In this document: positions 1,251 through 11,756 of the stretch, piece by piece
How positions within the stretch are numbered: the first letter of the stretch is position 1
Layout of the letters: every line of letters starts with the position of its first letter
IMG/VR virus record: IMGVR_UViG_2703718823_000008
Strand: one strand, 5' to 3'
DNA from: a virus
Lineage: Duplodnaviria; Heunggongvirae; Uroviricota; Caudoviricetes
Length of the DNA: 33,510 nucleotides
Made by a program: the position numbers and the translations under genes
Notes under the pieces: model-generated
The model's input: the letters and a program-made list of their open reading frames with translations, nothing else
Told to the model about the DNA's origin: nothing
Database searches by the model: none

Positions 1251-1895
1251 CTATTTAACTGTCCATGCCGGGCTGAAATCCACTTCCTGAAATAACTCAG
1301 TTAGCCCGCTAATTTGTTTAAGTCTCAGTACTTCATCCTGATCCATACCCAACTCAGTGCCAATGCGTTCATCTGCCCATCCCAAGCGTGAAAGATCTCT
1401 TACAATATCAGACACTGAGTCTATCTGGTGTTTCCCCCTAGCCCGGTTATGTCGAATGGTTGCGGCAATGCGTGCGGCTTGCCCTTTTCTCTCTGGATTA
1501 ATACAGGCTACAGGCAGCCAGCCCCTCAGACGTTTTCCTGTAACTGATTCTCTGCCCAATAACTGACGATGAAAACCATCCACCACCAGATAATGATTCT
1601 TCTCCTCTGACACCACCACCGGTTGTGTGAAACCATCTTTTTCCAGTGACTGCTTCAGCAGTTTCTTCTCACTTGGTGCCATGACATTGGGGTTATAATC
1701 GTTGGCTACCACCTCATCCGCTTTCACCCACAGCACACAGTCTACAGGCTCCTGTGCAAAAGGACTGACTTCATGCAGTACCCTGCGCAGATGGTTAAGG
1801 GCTCGTATGGACTCTTCTTCGGGCTGTTCCCGACTGAAGTACTGACGAATCATGTTGCTTAGTACATCCATCTCAGGCGTCACAGAATCCCCCAT
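1251..1895 (-). CDS. ibrB: ParB-like nuclease domain protein (IbrB family)
   Basis: 214-aa ORF overlapping the upstream PAPS-reductase-like gene by 16 nt (operon); ParB/Srx-like N-terminal region; pairing with an IbrA-like gene. Confidence 0.8.
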   Translation of the reverse strand: MGDSVTPEMDVLSNMIRQYFSREQPEEESIRALNHLRRVLHEVSPFAQEPVDCVLWVKADEVVANDYNPNVMAPSEKKLLKQSLEKDGFTQPVVVSEEKNHYLVVDGFHRQLLGRESVTGKRLRGWLPVACINPERKGQAARIAATIRHNRARGKHQIDSVSDIVRDLSRLGWADERIGTELGMDQDEVLRLKQISGLTELFQEVDFSPAWTVK

Positions 1896-3106
1896 TCTTT
1901 CCTCCTTTCCTTCATTCGTTGCAGATAACGCTCATAGTGCCGGGGTTTGTTCGGACTGAAGGAGAGGGTCCGGCACCAGAAGTCATTCTTTATGAGCGTC
2001 TTACAGATACGTCGCCAGGACGGGATATCCCGGCTCCCCAGGTCATTCTCCTGTTCATCCGGGATATCATCCGGGAAGCCCCGCGTCTGATACCAGCGCA
2101 GGTAGACTGCAATTTTGTTACGGTAATGTTCTGCTGTTCTTTCTGGCATAACATCCAGCATGAACATTGCGTAGCTGCGCCAGGTATGATGAGCCGGTTT
2201 TGTGATTCGTTTACGCAGAGCAAAATAGGCACCGCTTTCATTGGCATAAAGAGCGCCACTGGCAGCCCCTGACACTCGCTCACACATCCTGGCCCAGGTT
2301 TCCGGCTCCAGAACATGGTAAAGCCACAGCCCCTTACGCTGTTCCGGGCCAAAGGGCTCACAAACACGCATGTTGCGTAACGACACTCCGGCACGGTACA
2401 TTAGGTCGTACAGGGGATTGTAGATGGCGCGGGTTCTTGAGTTATACGTCCATATATCATTTGTTTTCCAGTCATACAATGGATACATGGTGTAGTAAAA
2501 ACCATCGGGTGAAGCGGTGGTCCAGGGTTTATCATCTGCATATCTCAGTTTGCGCTGAGACACCAGTCCCATAAAGCGATTGAGCGATTCATCAGCACGA
2601 ACACCAGTTAGTATTCCCACTCCACATCGGTTACCGGCAAACCAGGAAGAAAATGCCGGAACAAATTCTTCAAACGTCATGGCATACCGATAAAATGGGA
2701 AATACGACATATCTGTAATAGCGTCATCTGGTGGCTGACGAACCCATTCTACACCTGGCTCCCAACATATCCATTCTGGCTGAAACTGAGAGACGCCATT
2801 TACCGTAGTCAGAGGAAGCGCTACCCAGTAAAAATTGTCTGTCACATGCCGGTACATTTCCCTCATCTTTTGGATATGATTAATCGTGCACTGATATTGG
2901 GCTTCCCAGTCAATGAATAAAACCGAAAAACGACGTTTTTTTCTACTGGCGACTTCTGCCACAAGATGGAAAAGCACAGTAGAGTCTTTGCCACCAGAAA
3001 AAGACAAGCAGACCTCATTAAACGTTTCGAACAACCATTCAATGCGATGGATTGCTGCTGACAGAACATTTTCCCCTGTGCTGATTTTTGTTATGGTTCC
3101 TGACAT
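1880..3106 (-). CDS. ibrA: PAPS reductase-like PP-loop protein (IbrA family)
   Basis: 408-aa ORF with PP-loop motif SGGKDS near the N-terminus (FSGGKDSTVLFHL); low-GC flanks; AT-rich promoter-like region at 3107-3260. Confidence 0.85.
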   Translation of the reverse strand: MSGTITKISTGENVLSAAIHRIEWLFETFNEVCLSFSGGKDSTVLFHLVAEVASRKKRRFSVLFIDWEAQYQCTINHIQKMREMYRHVTDNFYWVALPLTTVNGVSQFQPEWICWEPGVEWVRQPPDDAITDMSYFPFYRYAMTFEEFVPAFSSWFAGNRCGVGILTGVRADESLNRFMGLVSQRKLRYADDKPWTTASPDGFYYTMYPLYDWKTNDIWTYNSRTRAIYNPLYDLMYRAGVSLRNMRVCEPFGPEQRKGLWLYHVLEPETWARMCERVSGAASGALYANESGAYFALRKRITKPAHHTWRSYAMFMLDVMPERTAEHYRNKIAVYLRWYQTRGFPDDIPDEQENDLGSRDIPSWRRICKTLIKNDFWCRTLSFSPNKPRHYERYLQRMKERRKEWGIL

Positions 3107-3552: not shown

Positions 3553-4602
3553 GTGCGGGTATTACTTCGACCTGTTCTGGTGCCGGAACTTGGCCTGGTG
3601 GTCCTTAAGCCCGGACGCGAATCACTGCCTGTTTTTCATTGCGGCAGGGTGCTGGTGGAGCCGGAACCGAAAAGCATGCGTGCTCTGCCGTCCGGGTTTG
3701 TACCTGCCGTTCGCCAGCCGCTGGCGGAAGATAAATCATTACTGCCATTTTTCAGCGATGAGCGGGTGATCCGTGCTGCGGGTGGCGCTGGTGTACTGTC
3801 TGACTGGTTATTACGTCACGTGAAATCCTGCCAGTGGCCACACGGCGATTATCATCACAGCGAAACCGTCATTCACCGTTACAGTACCGGCGCGATGGTG
3901 TTGTGCTGGCACTGCGACAACCACCTGCGGGAGCAGACATCTGATTCACTGGAGCTACTTGCTCAACAGAATCTGGCCGCCTGGATGATTGACGTCATCC
4001 GTCACGTAATGAATGGCGCACAGGAGCGTGAATTATCGCTGGCTGAATTATCCTGGTGGGCGGTCTGCAATCAGGTGGCTGATGCGCTTCCGGAATCTGT
4101 ATTGCGTCGTTCGCTGGGATTACCGGTGGAAAAAATTCGCTCCGTATACAGTGAGAGCGACATCATACCGGGAGAGCAGACCGCCACCAGCATCCTGAAG
4201 CAGCGGACAAAAAACATAGCGCCACCGCTTCACGCCCACCAGCCACAAACCACGCCACAGGAAAAGACGGTAGTAAGCATCGCCGTTGATCCGGAGTCCC
4301 CGGAATCTTTCATGAAACGGCCTAAACGTCGTCGCTGGGTTAATGAAAAGTTCACGCGCTGGGTTAAGACGCAGCCGTGTGCATGCTGTGGAAAGCCAGC
4401 TGATGATCCGCATCACTTGATTGGCCATGGGCAGGGCGGTATGGGGACAAAATCCCACGATATTTTCACACTACCGTTGTGCCGGGAGCACCACAACGAA
4501 CTTCATGCTGACCCGCTGGAGTTTGAGAAAAAGTACGGGTCCCAGGTTGAGTTAATTTTTCATTTTCTTGATCACGCCTTTGCGACTGGCGTGCTCGGGT
4601 AA
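3553..4602 (+). CDS. DUF968-family nin-region protein (YdfU-like) with C-terminal Cys/His HNH-like motif
   Basis: 349-aa ORF; GTG start with GGAGG SD; C-terminal CACCGKPADDPHH...CREHHNELH motif; position upstream of rusA as in lambdoid prophages. Confidence 0.8.
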   Translation: MRVLLRPVLVPELGLVVLKPGRESLPVFHCGRVLVEPEPKSMRALPSGFVPAVRQPLAEDKSLLPFFSDERVIRAAGGAGVLSDWLLRHVKSCQWPHGDYHHSETVIHRYSTGAMVLCWHCDNHLREQTSDSLELLAQQNLAAWMIDVIRHVMNGAQERELSLAELSWWAVCNQVADALPESVLRRSLGLPVEKIRSVYSESDIIPGEQTATSILKQRTKNIAPPLHAHQPQTTPQEKTVVSIAVDPESPESFMKRPKRRRWVNEKFTRWVKTQPCACCGKPADDPHHLIGHGQGGMGTKSHDIFTLPLCREHHNELHADPLEFEKKYGSQVELIFHFLDHAFATGVLG

Positions 4603-4614
4603 AAGAGGTGACTG

Positions 4615-4974
4615 ATGCTCATAGATTTGGTTTTACCTTACCCGCCAACGGTGAACACCTACTGGCGTCGTCGTGGCAGCACATATTTTATCTCGGAGGA
4701 GGGAAAGCGCTATCGCCGTGCTGTGGCGCTTATTGTTAACCAGCAGCGGCTGAAATTAAGCCTGTCCGGAAGGCTGGTAATCAGGATTATTGCAGAGCCA
4801 CCGGATAAGCGCCGCCGTGACCTGGACAATATTCTGAAAGCGCCGCTGGATGCGCTTACGCATGCGGGGTTGTTAATGGACGATGAGCAGTTTGATGAAA
4901 TCAATATTGTGCGTGGCCTGCCTGTTCCTGGCGGGCGGCTGGGGATAAAAATCACAGAACTGGAGTGCGCATGA
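4615..4974 (+). CDS. rusA: Holliday junction resolvase RusA
   Basis: 119-aa ORF; N-terminal LPYPPTVNTYWR and central DxDN region characteristic of RusA; GAGG SD. Confidence 0.9.
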   Translation: MLIDLVLPYPPTVNTYWRRRGSTYFISEEGKRYRRAVALIVNQQRLKLSLSGRLVIRIIAEPPDKRRRDLDNILKAPLDALTHAGLLMDDEQFDEINIVRGLPVPGGRLGIKITELECA

Positions 4975-5654
4975 ATAACCAGTATTTACAGTTTGTTCGT
5001 GAGCAACTCATGATTGCCACTGCGGATCTCAGTGGGGCGACAAAAGGCCAGCTGGAAGCCTGGCAGGAGAATGCCCTGTTCGATACAGGGCGTTACAGAC
5101 GCAAAAAAATTCGTTATCGCGATGAGGTAACCGGAAAAATGATCACGCGGGATAATCAACCGATCCCGGGTAAACAATCACTGGCGAAAGGCTCATCAAT
5201 TGCGCTGGTCAGTCCGGTTGAGTTTGCAACATCATCGTGGCGGCGTGCCGTTCTGGAACTGGAAGAACATCAGAAGGCGTGGTTACTGTGGTGCTACAGT
5301 GGAAATGTTTGCTGGGAAGATCAGGTCACTATAACACAATGGGTATGGGGTGAGTTTAAAGCTCAGGCTGGTACCAGAAAAATTGCAGGGAAAACGCTGG
5401 ATCGTCTGAAGAAACTGATTTGGCTGGCGGCACAGGATGTGAAGAGTGAGCTGGCAGGGCGTGAGACCTATGAACATCAGGAGTTAGCGGTGTTCATAGG
5501 AGTTGCTAAATCTACATGGACAAAAACACACAGGCCTCACTGGTTGGCTATGCGGGGTAGTGCAGAGATGCTGGACAGGGATGCTCTTATTTCAGTAATG
5601 CGGGTACGTTCACGGCAAAAGTCGATTAATTTAGAACCATATCTTGCAAAATAG
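4971..5654 (+). CDS. Late-gene antiterminator Q-like protein
   Basis: Start overlaps the rusA stop (ATGA); position immediately after rusA and before stacked terminators and the late genes; family assignment is by position and loose recall, not a verified motif. Confidence 0.65.
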   Translation: MNNQYLQFVREQLMIATADLSGATKGQLEAWQENALFDTGRYRRKKIRYRDEVTGKMITRDNQPIPGKQSLAKGSSIALVSPVEFATSSWRRAVLELEEHQKAWLLWCYSGNVCWEDQVTITQWVWGEFKAQAGTRKIAGKTLDRLKKLIWLAAQDVKSELAGRETYEHQELAVFIGVAKSTWTKTHRPHWLAMRGSAEMLDRDALISVMRVRSRQKSINLEPYLAK

Positions 5655-5725
5655 AACTGAAGAGCATATATTCCGTGTAAATCTGATATTTTGCAGATTT
5701 TGTTCGCGATGGCAAAGTAAGCAAA

Positions 5726-5748
5726 CCCCGCCGCCGAGCGGGTTTTTT
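5726..5748 (+). terminator. Intrinsic terminator-like hairpin with T6 tail downstream of the Q-like gene
   Basis: CCCCGCCGCCGAGCGGG followed by TTTTTT. Confidence 0.45.
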
Positions 5749-5912
5749 GTTGGCTTAACAGGTTATAATGTACAGTGCGAAACTGCCTGTTCAGCAGAAT
5801 CATAGAGTGTTGACTGATACTGTCGCTGTACCCTGATGGGACTTGTGAGACTTCCGAACTGGAAGCCAGGAGTAGCAATAAGGTGATGACAAGCCTGCTG
5901 CCCTGTGTAAAA

Positions 5913-5941
5913 GGCACCTTAATGGTGCCTTTGTCGTTTTT
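5913..5941 (+). terminator. Intrinsic terminator (GGCACC-TTAA-GGTGCC followed by a T-rich tail)
   Basis: Perfect 6-bp stem with 4-nt loop, followed by TTTGTCGTTTTT. Confidence 0.55.
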
Positions 5942-5952
5942 ATCAAAAGATC

Positions 5953-5976
5953 CCCGCCACTGGCGGGTTTTTTTTT
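5953..5976 (+). terminator. Strong intrinsic terminator, candidate tR' of the late operon
   Basis: CCCGCC-ACT-GGCGGG stem-loop followed by T9; the NN at 5978-5979 lies just 3' of it. Confidence 0.6.
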
Positions 5977-5983
5977 CNNAGAC

Positions 5984-6181
5984 ATGCTGAAACAGCAGGA
6001 TATGACAGAAACCGCCAGAGTGGTGTTTAATGAATTAAGCGTCACCGAACCGGCGACAGTCGGGGAGATAGCGCAGAATACTTACCTTTCACGCGAACGC
6101 TGCCAGTTAATACTGACCCAGCTGGTTATGGCGGGTCTGGCAGACTATCAGTTCGGTTGTTACAGACGCCTTCCGCAGTGA
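5984..6181 (+). CDS. Small hypothetical protein (65 aa), possibly a helix-turn-helix protein
   Basis: ORF immediately after the tR'-like terminator, followed by its own terminator; no confident motif. Confidence 0.4.
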   Translation: MLKQQDMTETARVVFNELSVTEPATVGEIAQNTYLSRERCQLILTQLVMAGLADYQFGCYRRLPQ

Positions 6182-6191
6182 AGGCTTTTTT
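6168..6191 (+). terminator. Intrinsic terminator after the small ORF
   Basis: GCCTTC-CGCAGT-GAAGGC hairpin followed by T6; the stop codon lies within the hairpin. Confidence 0.5.
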
Positions 6192-6331
6192 ATTTGTGGT
6201 AAATGGGCGGCTGGTGGGTGTTAGGGGCACCCCCCAGCCATCTGCTCATGCGTTGGGTTCACAAGCAAACCTCAGGCCCACTGCTTTGCGCAAAAGCAGA
6301 ATGAGCCTATCAGAGACAGGCTTAATGATCC

Positions 6332-7390
6332 ATGCTTAATACTGTAAAAATATCCAGTTGTGAGTTAATCAACGCCGACTGCCTTGAATTTATCCGGTCG
6401 TTACCCGAAAATTCTGTTGACCTGATAGTCACGGACCCGCCGTACTTTAAAGTGAAGCCTGAGGGCTGGGATAACCAGTGGAAGGGCGACGATGATTACC
6501 TGAAGTGGCTGGACCAGTGTCTTGCGCAGTTCTGGCGGGTGCTGAAACCTGCCGGAAGTCTTTACCTGTTCTGTGGCCATCGCCTGGCATCTGATATCGA
6601 AATCATGATGCGTGAACACTTCAGTGTGCTGAACCATATTATCTGGGCAAAGCCGTCCGGACGCTGGAACGGGTGCAACAAGGAAAGCCTGAGGGCGTAT
6701 TTCCCCGCCACAGAGCGCATTCTGTTCGCGGAACATTATCAGGGGCCGTATCGCCCGAAAGATGCCGGGTATGAGGCGAAGGGCAGGGCACTGAAACAGC
6801 ATGTGATGGCCCCGCTGATTTCTTACTTTCGTGATGCGCGTGCTGCCCTGGGGATAACGGCAAAACAGATAGTGGATGCCACAGGAAAGAAAAATATGGT
6901 GTCGCACTGGTTCAGTGCCAGCCAGTGGCAGTTACCGGACGAAAGCGATTATCTGAAATTACAGGCGCTGTTTGCCCGGGTGGCAGAAGAGAAGCATCAG
7001 CGCGGAGAACTGGAAAAGCCACATCACCAACTGGTCAGCACATACAGTGAACTGAACCGGCAGTATACGGAACTGCAGAGTGAATATAAGCATCTGCGGC
7101 GGTATTTCGGTGTGACGGTGCGGGTGCCGTACACCGATGTGTGGACGCATAAACCGGTGCAGTACTATCCCGGGAAACATCCGTGCGAAAAACCGGCAGA
7201 AATGCTGCAGCAGATAATCAGTGCGAGCAGTCGTCCGGGTGACCTGGTTGCAGATTTCTTCATGGGGTCGGGTTCGACAGTCAAAGCAGCGATGGTGTTG
7301 GGGCGTCGTGCTACAGGCGTTGAGCTGGAGACTGAACGTTTTGAGCAGACGGTCAGGGAAGTTCAGGATTTAGCCAGCCAGAACGGATGA
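6332..7390 (+). CDS. Orphan DNA methyltransferase (N6-adenine or N4-cytosine, beta class)
   Basis: DPPY motif near the N-terminus (LIVTDPPYF) and FxGxG S-adenosylmethionine-binding motif (FFMGSGST) near the C-terminus; no adjacent restriction endonuclease gene. Confidence 0.9.
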   Translation: MLNTVKISSCELINADCLEFIRSLPENSVDLIVTDPPYFKVKPEGWDNQWKGDDDYLKWLDQCLAQFWRVLKPAGSLYLFCGHRLASDIEIMMREHFSVLNHIIWAKPSGRWNGCNKESLRAYFPATERILFAEHYQGPYRPKDAGYEAKGRALKQHVMAPLISYFRDARAALGITAKQIVDATGKKNMVSHWFSASQWQLPDESDYLKLQALFARVAEEKHQRGELEKPHHQLVSTYSELNRQYTELQSEYKHLRRYFGVTVRVPYTDVWTHKPVQYYPGKHPCEKPAEMLQQIISASSRPGDLVADFFMGSGSTVKAAMVLGRRATGVELETERFEQTVREVQDLASQNG

Positions 7391-7430
7391 TATTGCAGGA
7401 TTAGTTACGTACCGTTATTATCCTGCGCCC

Positions 7431-7506
7431 GGCCCTTTAGCTCAGTGGTGAGAGCGAGCGACTCATAATCGCCAGGTCGCTGGTTCAAATCCAGCAAGGG
7501 CCACCA
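7431..7506 (+). tRNA. tRNA with CAT anticodon, Ile2 (lysidine) type, resembling the host ileX/ileY tRNA and the ileZ of Stx phages
   Basis: Manual cloverleaf fold: acceptor GGCCCTT/AAGGGCC, D-loop with GG, anticodon loop CTCATAA, T-loop TTCAAAT, 3' CCA encoded. Confidence 0.85.
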
Positions 7507-7515
7507 TATCACATA

Positions 7516-7592
7516 CCGCCATTAGCTCATCGGGATAGAGCGCCAGCCTTCGGAGCTGGCTGCGCGGGGTTCGAGTCCTCGATGGCGGTCCA
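7516..7592 (+). tRNA. tRNA-Arg with TCG anticodon
   Basis: Manual cloverleaf fold: acceptor CCGCCAT/ATGGCGG, anticodon stem CCAGC/GCTGG with loop CTTCGGA (G at position 37), T-loop TTCGAGT, 3' CCA encoded. Confidence 0.75.
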
Positions 7593-7870
7593 TTATCTGC
7601 ATCATGCGTTGTTAGCTCTGATGAGTGAATCATTGTCTTTTGAGCAACAGGCTATCATATAAGATAGTCTCAGATTTCCTTGTTTATTCTCGCCGGATGC
7701 TTCGTAGATATTTGCAGGCATCTGTATGCAGGGGTATTATTGCGGCATATATCATCCGGAAAAATAAAAACTACATGCTGATCCGGAGATGATAGTTACA
7801 AGTCCTCCCGGATCCCGCATATTTACTATATTTTATAGATAATTGTTCTTGTTAATATGGAGATGGATAA

Positions 7871-8299
7871 ATGTATTGCCGTGCTGTACCGGTTCTTGTT
7901 TTGATATTAGCCAGTCTGACAACTGGCTGCACAAAAGATGTATCGACAAATAATTATGATGCTTCGCTGCATCACTCAGATAAATTAATAAAGTCGCAAA
8001 ATTTGAGCTTATCGGAACGTACCCCTGATGCCAGTGAAGAAATCCGGCAGTATGCCATTCAGGTCAGGGAAGCCATAGAAGAACAGTTAAAGGATGCGGG
8101 TAAGTATTCAGGAAAAGAGTGTTCACTGAGAATGTATATGGCCCCGAATGGTCTTCTGCTACAGGTTAAAAGAGAAAGCGGTGATCCCGATTTATGTCGT
8201 GAAGCGATGAATGCAGTAAAGAATGCTGATATACCATCACCACCGTCTTCAGGAGTATATAAAGCATTTAGAAATGGCGTGCTGGATTTTAAACTCTGA
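7871..8299 (+). CDS. Lipoprotein carrying a stand-alone TolA C-terminal (domain III)-like domain
   Basis: 142-aa ORF; signal peptide with lipobox-like LTTGC (Thr at +2); C-terminal 80 aa aligns by eye to E. coli TolA domain III (GKxC-LR---APnG-LL, GDP-LC, IP-PPS, VY--F-N--LDFK); GGAG SD; low-GC gene. Confidence 0.8.
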   Translation: MYCRAVPVLVLILASLTTGCTKDVSTNNYDASLHHSDKLIKSQNLSLSERTPDASEEIRQYAIQVREAIEEQLKDAGKYSGKECSLRMYMAPNGLLLQVKRESGDPDLCREAMNAVKNADIPSPPSSGVYKAFRNGVLDFKL

Positions 8300-8321
8300 C
8301 TGGGGGAGAAGATTTTCTCCT

Positions 8322-8612
8322 GTCCAGATGATTTTGGGGTGCTGGAAAGATATTGTGCTGTGAAGTGTTAAATTCCTCACAATTCAGTAAGTTGACAGTT
8401 GCCTGTCAGACTGGGCATTTGTTAAAAAAATTTCGCATGGTGAATCCCCCTGTGCGGAGGGGCGACTGGTGAACGGTATGATCTCTTTGATGATCGTAAG
8501 CGAGAATACGCGGGTTTAGTGTCACCGGGCTGAACTCACCGGGAGGCACCCGGCACCATGCTCATGGTGATACAGAAATGCGGCTTCAGCCCCTCTCTGG
8601 AGGGGCTTTCTT
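8322..8612 (+). repeat. Structured noncoding repeat unit A (about 270-290 bp) ending in an intrinsic terminator; candidate sRNA or 3'-UTR element
   Basis: Shares conserved blocks with units B and C (GTTAAAT-CCTCACA-TTCAG; TGAATCCCCCTG-GCGGAGGGGC; ACCGGGAGGCACCCGGCAC-ATG); terminator GCCCCTC-TCTG-GAGGGGC plus T-tail at 8589-8612. Confidence 0.6.
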
Positions 8613-8618
8613 ATGGAC

Positions 8619-8646
8619 AAAAAAGCCCGCGCTGGGAGACGCGGGC
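8619..8646 (-). terminator. Minus-strand intrinsic terminator capping repeat element D1 (about 8619-8745)
   Basis: GCCCGCG/CGCGGGC stem preceded on + by A6 (T6 on the minus strand); flank GGCAAGGAATAAA-CAATAAAACGTGAAGTAAT conserved with D2. Confidence 0.5.
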
Positions 8647-8765
8647 GGCAAGGAATAAACAATAAAACGTGAAGTAATATTTCAGCTGGCGAATAATACC
8701 CCATAGTAATCACTCTGCGCAACTGCGCGGCCTTTTTCGAATTGCGGGCTGTAGTCTCCCTTCTG

Positions 8766-8930
8766 CCGGGTGGCCTGGTTGCAGATTTCTTCATGGGGTA
8801 GGGTTCGGCAGTTAAAGCAGCGATGGCGCTGGGGCGTCGTGCTATAGGCGTTGAGCTGGATACCGGGCGTTTTGAACAGACTGCGCAGGCAATCAGGGAT
8901 ATATTTATCGGTAGCTGTTTGCAGAAGTAA
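8766..8930 (+). pseudogene. 3' fragment of a second, diverged DNA methyltransferase gene (homologous to 7232-7390) with an in-frame TAG
   Basis: Nucleotide homology to the 3' end of the intact methyltransferase; translation gives LVADFFMG*GSAVKAAMALGRRAIGVELDTGRFEQT; no upstream part of the gene. Confidence 0.7.
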
Positions 8931-9004
8931 TCTCCCAAAATTCCATTTTTGGAATGCAGTGGTTGTTGCTGTAGTGTGGGCAAGTTCTGGAACTGGCTTC
9001 GTCC

Positions 9005-9281
9005 ATTGCAGATGATTGTTAGCTGGATATCAGTTACCTCATGGAAATGTTAAATGACTCACAATTCGGTTGATGGACTATTGTCTGATTGATGGAAGTC
9101 TTGTAAAAACGAGCCAGCATAGTGAATCCCCCTGTGCGGAGGGGCGTCTGACATGGTCTCCATAGCGATGGTCACAATACGCAGATTCAGTAGTCAGGCT
9201 GAATCTACCGGGAGGCACCCGGCACTATGCTGCTTATGGTGTATACACAGCGATCGGCCCCTCTCCTGAGGGGCTTTTTTT
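9005..9281 (+). repeat. Structured noncoding repeat unit B ending in an intrinsic terminator
   Basis: Same conserved blocks as unit A; terminator GCCCCTC-TCCT-GAGGGGC plus T7 at 9257-9281. Confidence 0.6.
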
Positions 9282-9289
9282 GTGCGGGA

Positions 9290-9543
9290 AAAGGCTGTGT
9301 TGTTAAATGTTAAATCCCTCACAGTTCAGATGGTTGATGCTTGCCTGTCTGACGGGGAGTTGTTAAAAAAGTTCTGCATGGTGAATCCCCCTGAGCGGAG
9401 GGGCATATCAGCGCAGGTGTTTCTACTCTATCCTTTCTGTGCGGGTTCAGGTGCTGATACTGAACTCACCGGGAGGCACCCGGCACCATGTAGTATACAG
9501 AGATTAGGCATACATCCAGGCTCCTCATTGCAGGAGCCTTTTT
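9290..9543 (+). repeat. Structured noncoding repeat unit C ending in an intrinsic terminator
   Basis: Same conserved blocks as units A and B; terminator AGGCTCCT-CATTGC-AGGAGCCT plus T4 at 9518-9543 (different stem sequence, same structure). Confidence 0.6.
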
Positions 9544-9549
9544 ACATGC

Positions 9550-9577
9550 AAAAAAACCGCTCCAGGGAAGAGCGGTT
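9550..9577 (-). terminator. Minus-strand intrinsic terminator capping repeat element D2 (about 9550-9668)
   Basis: CCGCTC/GAGCGG stem preceded on + by A7; flanks conserved with D1 while the stem sequence differs and pairing is preserved. Confidence 0.5.
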
Positions 9578-9767
9578 GGCAAGGAATAAATAACAAAACG
9601 TGAAGTAATTTATTCAGCGCCCTAATAATACCTTACAGTAATCACATTGCGCAACTGTATGTAAGGGCGTATTTCTTTTTTGCGGGCTGTTTTGTGTGAC
9701 TTTTGTGTTTCCGGAGGTCAGCCCGAGCCTTCTCTGACTCAGAACATTATTCCGGCCGGGAGGATTC

Positions 9768-11756
9768 ATGGCATTTAAACACTACGATGTGGTCAGGGCG
9801 GCATCGCCGTCAGACCTTGCTGAACGACTGACACAAAAACTGAAGGAGGGGTGGCAGCCATTTGGCAGCCCTGTCGCCATCACGCCTTATACCCTGATGC
9901 AGGCTATTGCGGCGGAAGGTGATGTCACCACGCCGGTGCTGGTTAAACCATCGGGTGACGGGGAGACGGCTATCAGCAAGACCGGTGAGCCTGAATATTA
10001 TTATGTTGTCGCGCTGGCGGGTCAGTCAAATGGTATGTCTTTTGGAGAGGGAGTACCGTTACCTGATTCTTATGATCGCCCTGATCCGAGAATTAAGCAG
10101 CTTGCCCGTCGACGTACCGTTACGCCGCGAGGCGTTCCCTGCACCTATAACGATGTTATTCCGGCAGATCATTGTCTTCATGATGTGATGGATATGAGTG
10201 AAAAAAATCACCCCCGGGCAGACCTCAATAAAGGTCAGTATGGTTGTGTGGGTCAGGGACTGCATATTGCCAAAAAACTGTTACCGTTTATACCGGCGAA
10301 TGCGGGCATTCTTCTGGTTCCATGCTGTCGTGGAGGCTCGGGAGTGACTACAGGTAATGAGGGAACATTTAACGCCTCTTCCGGGGCAAGCCCTGATTCT
10401 GCATTGTGGGGAGCTGATAAGCCGCTGTACCAGGATCTGTTAAGTCGCACGAAAGTCGCGCTGGCTAAAAATCCCGGAAATATCCTGCTGGCGGTAATCT
10501 GGATGCAGGGGGAGAGTGATCTGGCTTCAGGAAGCCAGAGTCATAATGCTCTTTTTACTGGCATGGTACAGAAATTCCGTGCTGACATCGCTGATATGTC
10601 AGGGCAGTGCGTGGGGGGCTCGGCACTGAGCGTTCCGTGGGTTTGTGGCGATACGACGCATTACTGGAAAGAAAAATATGCTGCGTCTTATGAAACTGTA
10701 TACGGTGGATATAAAAATAAGGCAGCGCAGAATATTCACTTTGTCCCTTTCATGGTTGATGGAAGCGGGGTAAATGTGCAGACCAATAATCCGGCAGAAG
10801 ATCCTGATATTGAAGGTATTGGCTACTCCGGTTCGAAGTGGCGAGACAGTTCTGTCAGCTGGACGTCAGGTGACAGGGCAAGCCATTTCGGTTCATGGGC
10901 GCGGCGTGGAATTATTTCAGATCGTCTTGCAACCGCAATTCTGACCCACGCAGGCAAATACCCGGCGTTTATCACCGGGCGGTCAGAAACGGTAGTTGCA
11001 GGAGATGAACGGGAAAACGTTACATCCGGAAATTTCCCGTCACCTGTGGAGGATGCTGCGTTATCACAGGATGCACCTCAGAGAAGAACGGTTGTTGAGT
11101 ATAATTCAGCTGTTGAGAAAGACAGCCTCGGTGGTAACTGGGCAGCCCAGCACTGGAATGCCCGGGACGGTGTCGCCGAGTTTGTTAATGATGAAAGCAG
11201 ACAGGTGCTGAAGATTAAGCAGCATGAGGGCAAACAGGGACCGTGGATGCTGTCAGCAGGAGTATCAGCTGAAGATGCCCGTGCTCTGTATGAAAATGGC
11301 GGTGAAATAAAACTTGAATTCAGGTTGCCGGATGGTACCCAGGTTGCAGATGACAAATACCTCTTTGGTGTTTACCTGCCAGTTTCCGGGTGGACTCAGG
11401 AAGGCAACGGCAGCAATATGATGGCCTCCTTTTTCACTCAGACAAAAGCCAGTAACCTGGATGTCATGTATCACGGTAAAACACAGCCTAATACAAAAAT
11501 TGAGTCATTCGGTGCGGTTAATAACAACTGGCACACGCTTGTCTTTAAATATAAAGGAGGCGGCAATCACCAGGTTATTCCGGTACTTGACGGAGAAGAG
11601 AAAACAGGTTTTGCACTGAAAGAAGGTCCGGTCACTTCTGCCTTTACGGTGGATAACATCACAGTGACAGGTATCAGCGCAAATCAGGGAAAATCTTATC
11701 CTGTCATGTTCCGCAGTATCATGGTAAGCATTAACCAGGCAACCTCTTCATCATAA
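9768..11756 (+). CDS. NanS-p-like sialate O-acetylesterase (DUF1737-like N-terminus plus SGNH-hydrolase-like domain)
   Basis: 662-aa ORF; N-terminus MAFKHYDVVRA...GWQPFGSPV resembles the DUF1737 domain of prophage NanS-p/YjhS-type esterases as recalled; GGGAGG SD; position between the stx-equivalent slot and the lysis cassette. Confidence 0.8.
   Translation: MAFKHYDVVRAASPSDLAERLTQKLKEGWQPFGSPVAITPYTLMQAIAAEGDVTTPVLVKPSGDGETAISKTGEPEYYYVVALAGQSNGMSFGEGVPLPDSYDRPDPRIKQLARRRTVTPRGVPCTYNDVIPADHCLHDVMDMSEKNHPRADLNKGQYGCVGQGLHIAKKLLPFIPANAGILLVPCCRGGSGVTTGNEGTFNASSGASPDSALWGADKPLYQDLLSRTKVALAKNPGNILLAVIWMQGESDLASGSQSHNALFTGMVQKFRADIADMSGQCVGGSALSVPWVCGDTTHYWKEKYAASYETVYGGYKNKAAQNIHFVPFMVDGSGVNVQTNNPAEDPDIEGIGYSGSKWRDSSVSWTSGDRASHFGSWARRGIISDRLATAILTHAGKYPAFITGRSETVVAGDERENVTSGNFPSPVEDAALSQDAPQRRTVVEYNSAVEKDSLGGNWAAQHWNARDGVAEFVNDESRQVLKIKQHEGKQGPWMLSAGVSAEDARALYENGGEIKLEFRLPDGTQVADDKYLFGVYLPVSGWTQEGNGSNMMASFFTQTKASNLDVMYHGKTQPNTKIESFGAVNNNWHTLVFKYKGGGNHQVIPVLDGEEKTGFALKEGPVTSAFTVDNITVTGISANQGKSYPVMFRSIMVSINQATSSS

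Follow-up and report, generated by a model that had tools for sequence, protein, structure and literature searches.

We analysed the late control region of a prophage contained in the IMG/VR virus record IMGVR_UViG_2703718823_000008 (Caudoviricetes), a stretch of 33,510 nucleotides (nt) that we call the window, between positions 4,615 and 7,592. [quoted passage not shown] The first part would be a phage-82-family module made up of the antiterminator gene Q, the late promoter PR′ lying over the end of Q, a sigma70-dependent promoter-proximal pause and the terminator tR′ (T1). The second would be a 204-base-pair (bp) scar left by a PemK/MazF-like moron, the source of a TATAAT hexamer and of a second terminator (T2). 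The third would be the leader module of Stx2 phages, with a terminator (T3), a 65-amino-acid (aa) open reading frame (ORF), a further terminator (T4), a DNA methyltransferase gene, tRNA-Ile2 and tRNA-Arg(UCG). This mosaic history explains why the region has three closely placed terminators, a lone TATAAT and two tRNAs rather than three.

Sequence comparison established the gene identities, the conservation of promoter, pause and terminators, the module boundaries and the tRNA predictions; the mechanistic steps set out below rest on established Q biology. Positions 4600–10000 of the window match, with 100% identity, the chromosome of E. coli STEC2018-607 (NZ_CP075697.1), which was isolated from human stool. 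The surrounding prophage is lambdoid and has an early region of the dicB type, nin-like genes, Q, lysis genes and structural genes of the HK97 type. An initial annotation, made from the window alone, had recognized the order of Stx-converting phages, and the order found here (Q, late leader, small ORF, methylase, tRNAs, cargo, nanS-p, lysis) is indeed that of Stx2 phages. The architecture is already known, and nothing in it changes the understanding of antitermination. It provides a worked example of unrelated Q/PR′/tR′ cassettes being swapped in front of one conserved methylase–tRNA leader, with a slot past the tRNAs whose cargo can be exchanged and may be Shiga toxin, a type I restriction-modification system or a TolA-domain lipoprotein.

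A phage-82-type Q gene with its predicted late promoter

The following features make up the first module.

4971–5654, plus strand: phage-82-family Q antiterminator, intact, 227 aa (PF06323, E = 1.2e-88; PHROG 304)
5644–5672, plus strand: predicted late promoter PR′, TTGCAA (5644–5649), 17-bp spacer, TATATT (5667–5672) (promoter scan; conservation)
5684–5692, plus strand: predicted sigma70-dependent pause element, TGaTATTTT, at +6 to +14 (conservation; published phage 82 geometry)
5676–5748, plus strand: predicted short PR′ leader RNA of about 70 nt, diverged IsrJ-like (alignment with Rfam isrJ, RF01393)
5727–5748, plus strand: terminator 1 (T1), tR′ of the Q82 module, stem CCCGC/GCGGG followed by T6 (pattern scan, stem 5727–5742; fold)

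The Q-like gene reported initially was found to be intact, with the Phage_antiter_Q match of PF06323 spanning its full length, and its ATG overlaps the stop codon of rusA (ATGA). The product is 69.6% identical to the Q protein of phage 434, annotated as ‘Q82-like’, and 64% identical to AntQ of Gifsy-1, annotated as similar to REGQ_BP82, the Q protein of phage 82. A PDB sequence search with Q returned no match, and the Q82 family therefore has no structural anchor. Homologues of the unit formed by PR′, leader and T1 are present in 1,443 of 5,426 complete E. coli genomes, and for 23 of the 24 matches listed the overlapped gene carries the annotation antitermination protein Q.

PR′ lies over the final codons of Q and has its predicted start at A5679. 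When the sequences following Q were aligned for eight Q82-family phages from five genera (Escherichia, Salmonella, Klebsiella, Enterobacter and Cronobacter), the −35 element (TTGCAAAA), the −10 element (CATATAtT) and the succeeding GTAAATCTGATAT were invariant or nearly so, whereas the sequence around them diverged. The same TTGCAA...TATATT promoter precedes the isrJ locus of Gifsy-1. The pause element is kept as AAATCTGATAT in all relatives aligned; in the window it is followed by GCA at +15 to +17 and then by a T-rich stretch, with the predicted pause near +25 (5703). For pR′ of phage 82, published work (PMC5001585) describes an extended −10-like pause element, a GCC discriminator at +15–17 and pausing at +25. 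GCC likewise stands exactly at +15 to +17 in relatives, PPompW and NZ_CP027586.1 among them, and is followed by a T-rich stretch to +25. This comparison uses the published phage 82 position numbers together with the relatives, in place of phage 82’s own sequence. At the position of T1, every aligned relative has a GC-rich hairpin followed by a T-run, with differing stem sequences, and the phage 434 record has an annotated terminator there.

Because the conserved order of promoter and pause fits that of phage 82 pR′, and because a terminator is annotated at this place in 434, we place PR′ at 5644–5672 and identify T1 as its tR′. The position of the late promoter is now resolved by homology; promoter activity, pausing and Q-dependent read-through would be expected of it. 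It is not where the initial annotation had sought it, since the TATAAT proposed there as a −10 element (5764–5769) lies beyond T1, whereas the conserved Q82-type PR′ is upstream. With the corresponding unit of phages 82, 434 and Gifsy-1 the window shares the Q Pfam family, the promoter over the end of Q, the extended −10-like sequence of the predicted pause element at +6 to +14 and a terminator approximately 50–70 nt downstream. It differs in having GCA for GCC and a diverged leader middle, and, compared with 82 and 434, in being followed by the Stx2-phage leader module instead of the late genes of either phage.

In the phage 434 record, a CII-binding site and the −35 element of the antisense promoter paQ are found on the opposite strand right over the PR′ −35 (extract L003, 2166–2179). 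The equivalent of the 434 CII site in the window (5636–5649) has just one good TTGC half-site.

The PR′ leader RNA and IsrJ

Short terminated PR′ RNAs are known from lambda, 21, phi80, 82, P22 and the Stx phages, where the RNA is called StxS (PMC7547250). As for lambda 6S, StxS and IsrJ, the combination of a constitutive late promoter and an early terminator should yield a small RNA (sRNA) ending in a hairpin and U-run here. The isrJ model aligned end to end with 5676–5747 (E = 0.079 on 351 nt). The first 15 nt of the leader and its terminator align with IsrJ, while the middle, including the central hairpin, is replaced, which accounts for a score under the isrJ threshold. The window leader resembles true IsrJ loci in its position, its promoter, its first 15 nt and its terminator but not in its score, and is therefore at most a diverged relative.

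Better-scoring isrJ matches occupy the same place in other Q82-type phages. In Enterobacter phage ENT1 (72.7 bits) and Klebsiella phage ST512-KPC3phi13.1 (57.2 bits) the match starts 16 nt past the stop codon of Q, and the Gifsy-1 isrJ scores 100 bits. In extracts of these phages isrJ coincides with the PR′–tR′ leader (Gifsy-1, L005 3198–3396 and 4047–4121; L012/L013 1206–1284). Gifsy-1 carries a P1-like c4 antisense RNA/isrK and antirepressor (anrP) module inserted between Q and PR′, and it is therefore IsrJ, not IsrK, that is the late leader there. A weak isrK match on T2/T3 of the window (19.8 bits) was rejected, as it comprises merely two terminator-like hairpins and the true Gifsy-1 IsrK is located in the c4/antirepressor insertion.

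IsrJ-family sRNAs thus appear, by sequence, to be the late leaders of Q82-type prophages. This is the only mildly new point of the analysis; a literature search, which was not exhaustive, found no description of IsrJ as a late leader. For annotators and for sRNA studies the usable rule is that in Q82-type prophages PR′ overlaps the end of Q and the leader is Rfam IsrJ. A larger proposal, in which the IsrJ family of ‘island-encoded’, Hfq-binding sRNAs comprises terminated late leaders of Q82-type prophages and the window leader is a constitutive trans-acting sRNA of the lysogen like StxS, its variable central hairpin an evolving seed, is one that we consider doubtful.

A terminator stack assembled from several modules

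Downstream of T1 the following features are encountered.

5749–5952, plus strand: probable PemK/MazF-family toxin moron scar, 204 bp, containing TATAAT at 5764–5769 (comparison with E. coli genomes)
5910–5941, plus strand: terminator 2 (T2), 9-bp stem, −16 kcal/mol, z = −5.2 (scan, stem 5910–5932 and T-rich tail; fold)
5953–5976, plus strand: terminator 3 (T3) (scan, stem 5953–5967 and T-run; the T-run abuts an assembly gap)
6168–6191, plus strand: terminator 4 (T4), overlapping the stop codon of the 65-aa ORF (scan, stem 6168–6185 and T6; fold)

The three consecutive terminators described initially are present at 5727–5748, 5910–5941 and 5953–5976, and a fourth that had not been listed is found at 6168–6191. 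Scanning region 4500–9500 gave 19 terminator-like sites, compared with 4.6 ± 2.1 in shuffled sequences, and the terminator hairpins fold at −9 to −16 kcal/mol.

The 204-bp spacer between T1 and T3 occurs in 37 E. coli genomes and had no match in 50,697 phage records, searches at low stringency included. Of the 37 records listed, one for each genome, 24 have within it an insert of 494 bp with the gene for a toxin of the PemK/MazF family (PF02452, E = 1e-12 to 6e-14). This insert divides the spacer at 5803/5804, and consequently TATAAT lies upstream of the toxin gene and T2 directly downstream of it; in NZ_CP027586.1, T2 does directly follow the PemK-like gene. The window junction at 5803/5804 shows CAT microhomology. 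The TATAAT segment is known solely from prophages that carry, or have lost, the toxin moron. On the simplest reading, a moron lost its coding part here and left its promoter region, with TATAAT, and its terminator, T2; TATAAT itself may be the moron promoter. We infer a deletion rather than an insertion. The idea that positions 5749–5952 are a remnant of an Stx-phage PR′/StxS leader was discarded, given the lack of a phage match and their identity with the flanks of the PemK-like moron.

The relatives carry a solo PemK/MazF-family toxin gene (114–133 aa) just after tR′ (extract L009, 2556–3049). No antitoxin is annotated beside it in these relatives, and in the window the gene would have been cleanly removed.

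T3 was assigned by comparison with phage Stx2_EH2201. A hairpin matching T3 is located there approximately 85 nt after the phage’s own Q gene with no other evident terminator before it, although the pattern scan did not flag this hairpin; T3 is therefore the tR′ of the Stx2-type module. A site equivalent to T4 is also present in Stx2_EH2201. Judged by these homologies, the stack is two juxtaposed tR′ terminators (T1 and T3) together with a moron terminator (T2) and a small-ORF terminator (T4). The terminators in which the initial annotation saw tight Q-dependent control are real, but they were inherited with three separate modules, and the data do not show a purpose-built triple lock. Counts of terminators, or of perfect TATAAT hexamers, mislead in such regions unless the module history is checked.

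The Stx2-type leader module

Two genes precede the tRNAs in the third part.

5984–6181, plus strand: 65-aa ORF conserved in Stx2 phages (PHROG 331, E = 1e-37; sub-threshold TrmB/MarR winged-helix matches)
6332–7390, plus strand: orphan beta-class amino-DNA methyltransferase (PF01555, E = 1e-42)

The sequence shared with Stx2 phages extends from within T3 to position 7618 (90–96% identity), with 5981–7618 being 94–96% identical to many Stx2a/c/d phages. The order of the block (T3-like hairpin, approximately 110 nt, 65-aa ORF, T4, 352-aa methylase, tRNAs) follows unrelated Q genes, which encode 126 aa in Stx2_EH2201, 113 aa in Stx2a_1447 and 250 aa in phage Ayreon. The leader block of Ayreon is without tRNAs.

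The product of the 65-aa ORF is possibly a small winged-helix protein. The methylase has DPPY (approximately 6437–6448) near its N-terminus and FMGSG (approximately 7261–7275) near its C-terminus, which is the beta-class motif order. Its sequence relatives with solved structures in the PDB are RsrI, CcrM and MboIIA, and the NCBIfam yhdJ/CcrM models score below their cut-offs on it. No nuclease gene adjoins it, its neighbours being the 65-aa ORF and the tRNAs. These observations bear out the orphan methyltransferase of the initial annotation. The enzyme is probably of the N6-adenine type.

Like Stx2 phages (Stx2a_1447, Stx2_EH2201 and the Sp5/933W type), the window has a terminator, the 65-aa ORF, a terminator, the 352-aa methylase, ileZ and argN, in this order and at 88–96% DNA identity, with nanS-p and the lysis cassette downstream and STnc100 RNA after the cargo. 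In contrast to these phages, it has a Q/PR′ module of an unrelated type, an extra toxin-moron scar between two tR′ terminators, an argO fragment and the A37G change in argN, and it is without stxAB.

Two tRNAs and the remains of a third

The tRNA cluster and its immediate surroundings contain four features.

7393–7421, plus strand: candidate tRNA promoter, TTGCAG, 17-bp spacer, TATTAT (read from the sequence; ends 9 nt before tRNA-Ile2)
7431–7506, plus strand: tRNA-Ile2, anticodon CAU, ileZ/ileX type, predicted to read AUA after lysidine modification (ARAGORN; Rfam, 72.5 bits; PGAP tRNA-Ile)
7516–7592, plus strand: tRNA-Arg, anticodon UCG, argN type, predicted to read CGA/CGG (ARAGORN; Rfam, 53.2 bits, gathering score 29)
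7606–7660, plus strand: probable decayed 5′ half of argO (tRNA-Arg UCU), cargo-exchange breakpoint (alignment with Stx2 phages)

Both cloverleafs proposed initially, including the arginine tRNA with anticodon UCG, were accepted by ARAGORN and by the Rfam tRNA model. The tRNA-Ile2 is identical to ileZ of Stx2 phages and 92.1% identical to the tRNA-Ile of K-12 lab strains, and every complete E. coli genome has a homologue. Among the matches listed, all are annotated as tRNA-Ile except the weakest, a partial tRNA-Asn, and none as tRNA-Met. By these matches the CAU tRNA has an Ile2 body, related to ileX/ileY rather than to Met. The pair alone, tRNA-Ile and tRNA-Arg, is also what is annotated in phage phiP27.

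The tRNA-Arg is the argN of Stx2 phages, which is present in three Stx2-type loci, with the single change A37G. Window position 7552 corresponds to position 37 of this tRNA and is G where Stx2-phage argN has A, giving G36–G37. This is the context methylated by TrmD in other tRNAs.

The third tRNA, argO (UCU), is carried by Stx2 phages and by the relative NZ_CP027586.1. Its absence, remarked on in the initial annotation, is confirmed, with a decayed 5′ fragment still visible. The first 13 bases are exact (7606–7618), the likeness weakens across the anticodon arm and nothing is left of the 3′ half; ARAGORN makes no call on this remnant. Since argO breaks off in mid-gene, it marks the cargo-exchange breakpoint. 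A literature search on ileZ, argN and argO returned nothing relevant.

A primary transcription start that drives the tRNAs has been mapped between tR′ and stx2 in Sp5, an Stx2 phage (PMC7547250). By analogy, the window tRNAs probably also have their own promoter. The candidate stretch is 100% identical to Stx2 phages; it matches the consensus at just 8 of 12 positions and was not flagged by the promoter scan. Placing everything downstream of the terminators under Q control, as had been suggested, is probably too strong a statement in view of the mapped Sp5 promoter and this TTGCAG–17–TATTAT sequence.

Codon usage of the prophage genes was compared with that of 29 host genes. The codons CGA and CGG together are approximately twice as frequent in prophage genes (p = 7e-8), and CGG alone occurs 16.2 times per 1000 codons compared with 5.9 in the host. 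AGA and AGG are 2.9-fold enriched in late genes although argO has been lost. AUA is frequent in two genes, that of the methylase, with 5 such codons, and the TolA-like one, with 4 among 142.

The cargo slot

The slot that holds stx in Stx2 phages is occupied as follows.

7871–8299: 142-aa predicted lipoprotein whose C-terminal domain is of the TolA kind (PF06519, E = 3e-22; PHROG 5772, function not given; PGAP tolA)
8406–8618, 9088–9283 and 9348–9549: three full-length STnc100 copies (Rfam, 121–172 bits)

Between 7593 and 9767 there was no Stx-related Pfam match and no stx annotation, in agreement with the initial view that the cargo is not stx. The slot instead holds the TolA_C lipoprotein gene and three STnc100 RNA genes, and is followed by nanS-p and the lysis genes. 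The signal peptide of the lipoprotein ends in LTTGC, and its C-terminal 90 residues form the TolA domain. A secreted copy of TolA domain III might act as a decoy for colicins or for filamentous-phage g3p.

Earlier work (bioRxiv 10.64898/2026.05.13.724894) describes STnc100-family RNAs as self-standing sRNAs of prophages, and Stx2a_1447 has one copy after stx2B (extract L001, 6610–6825). A 3′ fragment of a methyltransferase gene (PGAP pseudogene, approximately 8768–8932) lies between the first and second copies in the window, and a 103-aa ORF at 9282–9593, which overlaps an STnc100 copy, is probably spurious.

In strain 2012EL-2448 (NZ_CP027586.1; extract L009, 5121 onward) the M subunit of a type I restriction-modification system follows ileZ–argN–argO. 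In some relatives, therefore, defence genes occupy the place of stx.

Proposed operation of the switch and alternative explanations

In the lysogen, PR′ would fire constitutively and only the IsrJ-like RNA of approximately 70 nt, ending at T1, would be made. Upon induction, Q produced from the early operon would load onto the polymerase paused near +25 and render it terminator-resistant. The Q-modified polymerase would then pass T1 to T4 and the terminators of the STnc100 genes, and so reach the methylase, cargo, nanS-p, lysis and structural/morphogenesis genes. The methylase would modify progeny DNA late in infection, and the tRNAs would supplement decoding of CGG/CGA and AUA. An exchange of cargo with its breakpoint inside argO would have replaced stx, or whatever other cargo came before, by the TolA-domain lipoprotein and the STnc100 RNAs.

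Several observations weigh against this explanation. The −35 and −10 elements of PR′ match the consensus at only 9 of 12 positions. The discriminator is GCA where relatives have GCC (A for C at +17), and in phage 82 single changes from G or C to A in the discriminator halve the pause half-life (PMC5001585). At 21.5 bits, the isrJ match of the leader is below the Rfam gathering score of 37. The CGG excess is equally strong in early and late genes, and AUA is not enriched overall in prophage genes (8.1 versus 6.9 per 1000, p = 0.41). The codon-usage comparison proposed initially thus favours a contribution of the arginine tRNA, by the enrichment of CGA/CGG, and not one of the isoleucine tRNA across the prophage as a whole. 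Finally, the replication ATPase, portal and tail-fibre genes are marked as disrupted by PGAP in the complete genome. With these genes disrupted, the switch may no longer yield phage, and lysis or cargo expression is possible instead.

The stack of four or five terminators could also be a selected fail-safe that silences the methylase, tRNAs and cargo (the toxin in relatives) in the lysogen. This would be compatible with the mosaic switch, and we regard it as unlikely, though as the strongest of the other explanations. All hairpins and T-runs are intact, the density of terminators is approximately fourfold the shuffle expectation, and the cell would pay a cost if transcription leaked through to a MazF-like toxin or to a promiscuous methylase. 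The T2 spacer, the sole part measured across genomes, is 100% identical in the eight genomes that have the exact arrangement; however, identity among a few closely related strains is a weak sign of selection. In addition, each terminator was inherited with a different module, and relatives with other Q types have just one or two terminators before the methylase.

Less likely still is that the region is an inert, decaying remnant of a defective prophage, in which Q, PR′ and the terminators are unused and only the tRNAs and sRNA genes, served by promoters of their own, matter to the host. The prophage may be partly defective by annotation: PGAP reports an internal stop or frameshift in the replication ATPase, the DUF1627 gene, the portal and the tail fibre of the complete genome, and the region has a deletion scar, a truncated argO and a methylase fragment among the cargo. 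Against wholesale decay, Q, the 65-aa ORF, the methylase, nanS-p, holin, lysozyme and most structural genes have kept their whole length, functional phages such as 434 have matching PR′, pause and terminator elements, and the apparent frameshifts may be sequencing errors.

A late promoter between T1 and T2 with the TATAAT at 5764–5769 as its −10, T1 ending the early (Q) transcript and T2/T3 acting as a tR′ pair, is very improbable: the hexamer is perfect and T2/T3 follow it by approximately 150–200 nt, similar to the 258-nt StxS leader of Stx phages (PMC7547250), but it has no usable −35 at 16–18 bp, was not flagged by the promoter scan, is followed by no −10-like pause repeat, lies in a segment that is absent from all other Q82-family phages examined and from the phage collection and is found only as flanking sequence upstream of a PemK-like toxin gene, and is preceded by a conserved promoter and pause element in the published phage 82 arrangement upstream of T1.

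Assembly gap and neighbouring genes

Two further features flank the modules described above.

5978–5979, no strand: ‘nn’ assembly gap (by comparison with NZ_CP075697.1)
4615–4974, plus strand: rusA, Holliday junction resolvase, last gene of the nin region (PF05866, E = 2e-16; PGAP)

At the ‘nn’, the chromosome of STEC2018-607 carries 113 extra bp, in which the ribosome-binding region of the 65-aa ORF and one more hairpin, a weak one, are found. The T-run after T3 reads T9C in the window and T6 followed by ATGCC in the chromosome. Further ‘nn’ pairs occur at 22062–22063 and 22224–22225, at the same point of a repeat, CCGCAGCCGGCGGACGG...GATGATnnGCGTCCG. Deliberate masking was rejected as an explanation because the complete genome has other bases beside the gap and the remaining ‘nn’ sites are in repeats; by the same comparison, all three pairs are more likely draft-assembly gaps or collapses.

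On the minus strand, at 1251–3106, genes for an IbrB-like protein (ParB domain) and a PAPS-reductase-like (IbrA-like) protein lie antisense inside the nin region, and this pair is apparently another moron. The prophage also contains an OmpC-family porin gene amid the tail genes, at roughly 29.5 kb of the window (complete-genome extract L010, 38438–39532), and a gene for a 108-aa TonB-family protein after the lysis cassette (L010, 23436–23762), which are further envelope-related morons.

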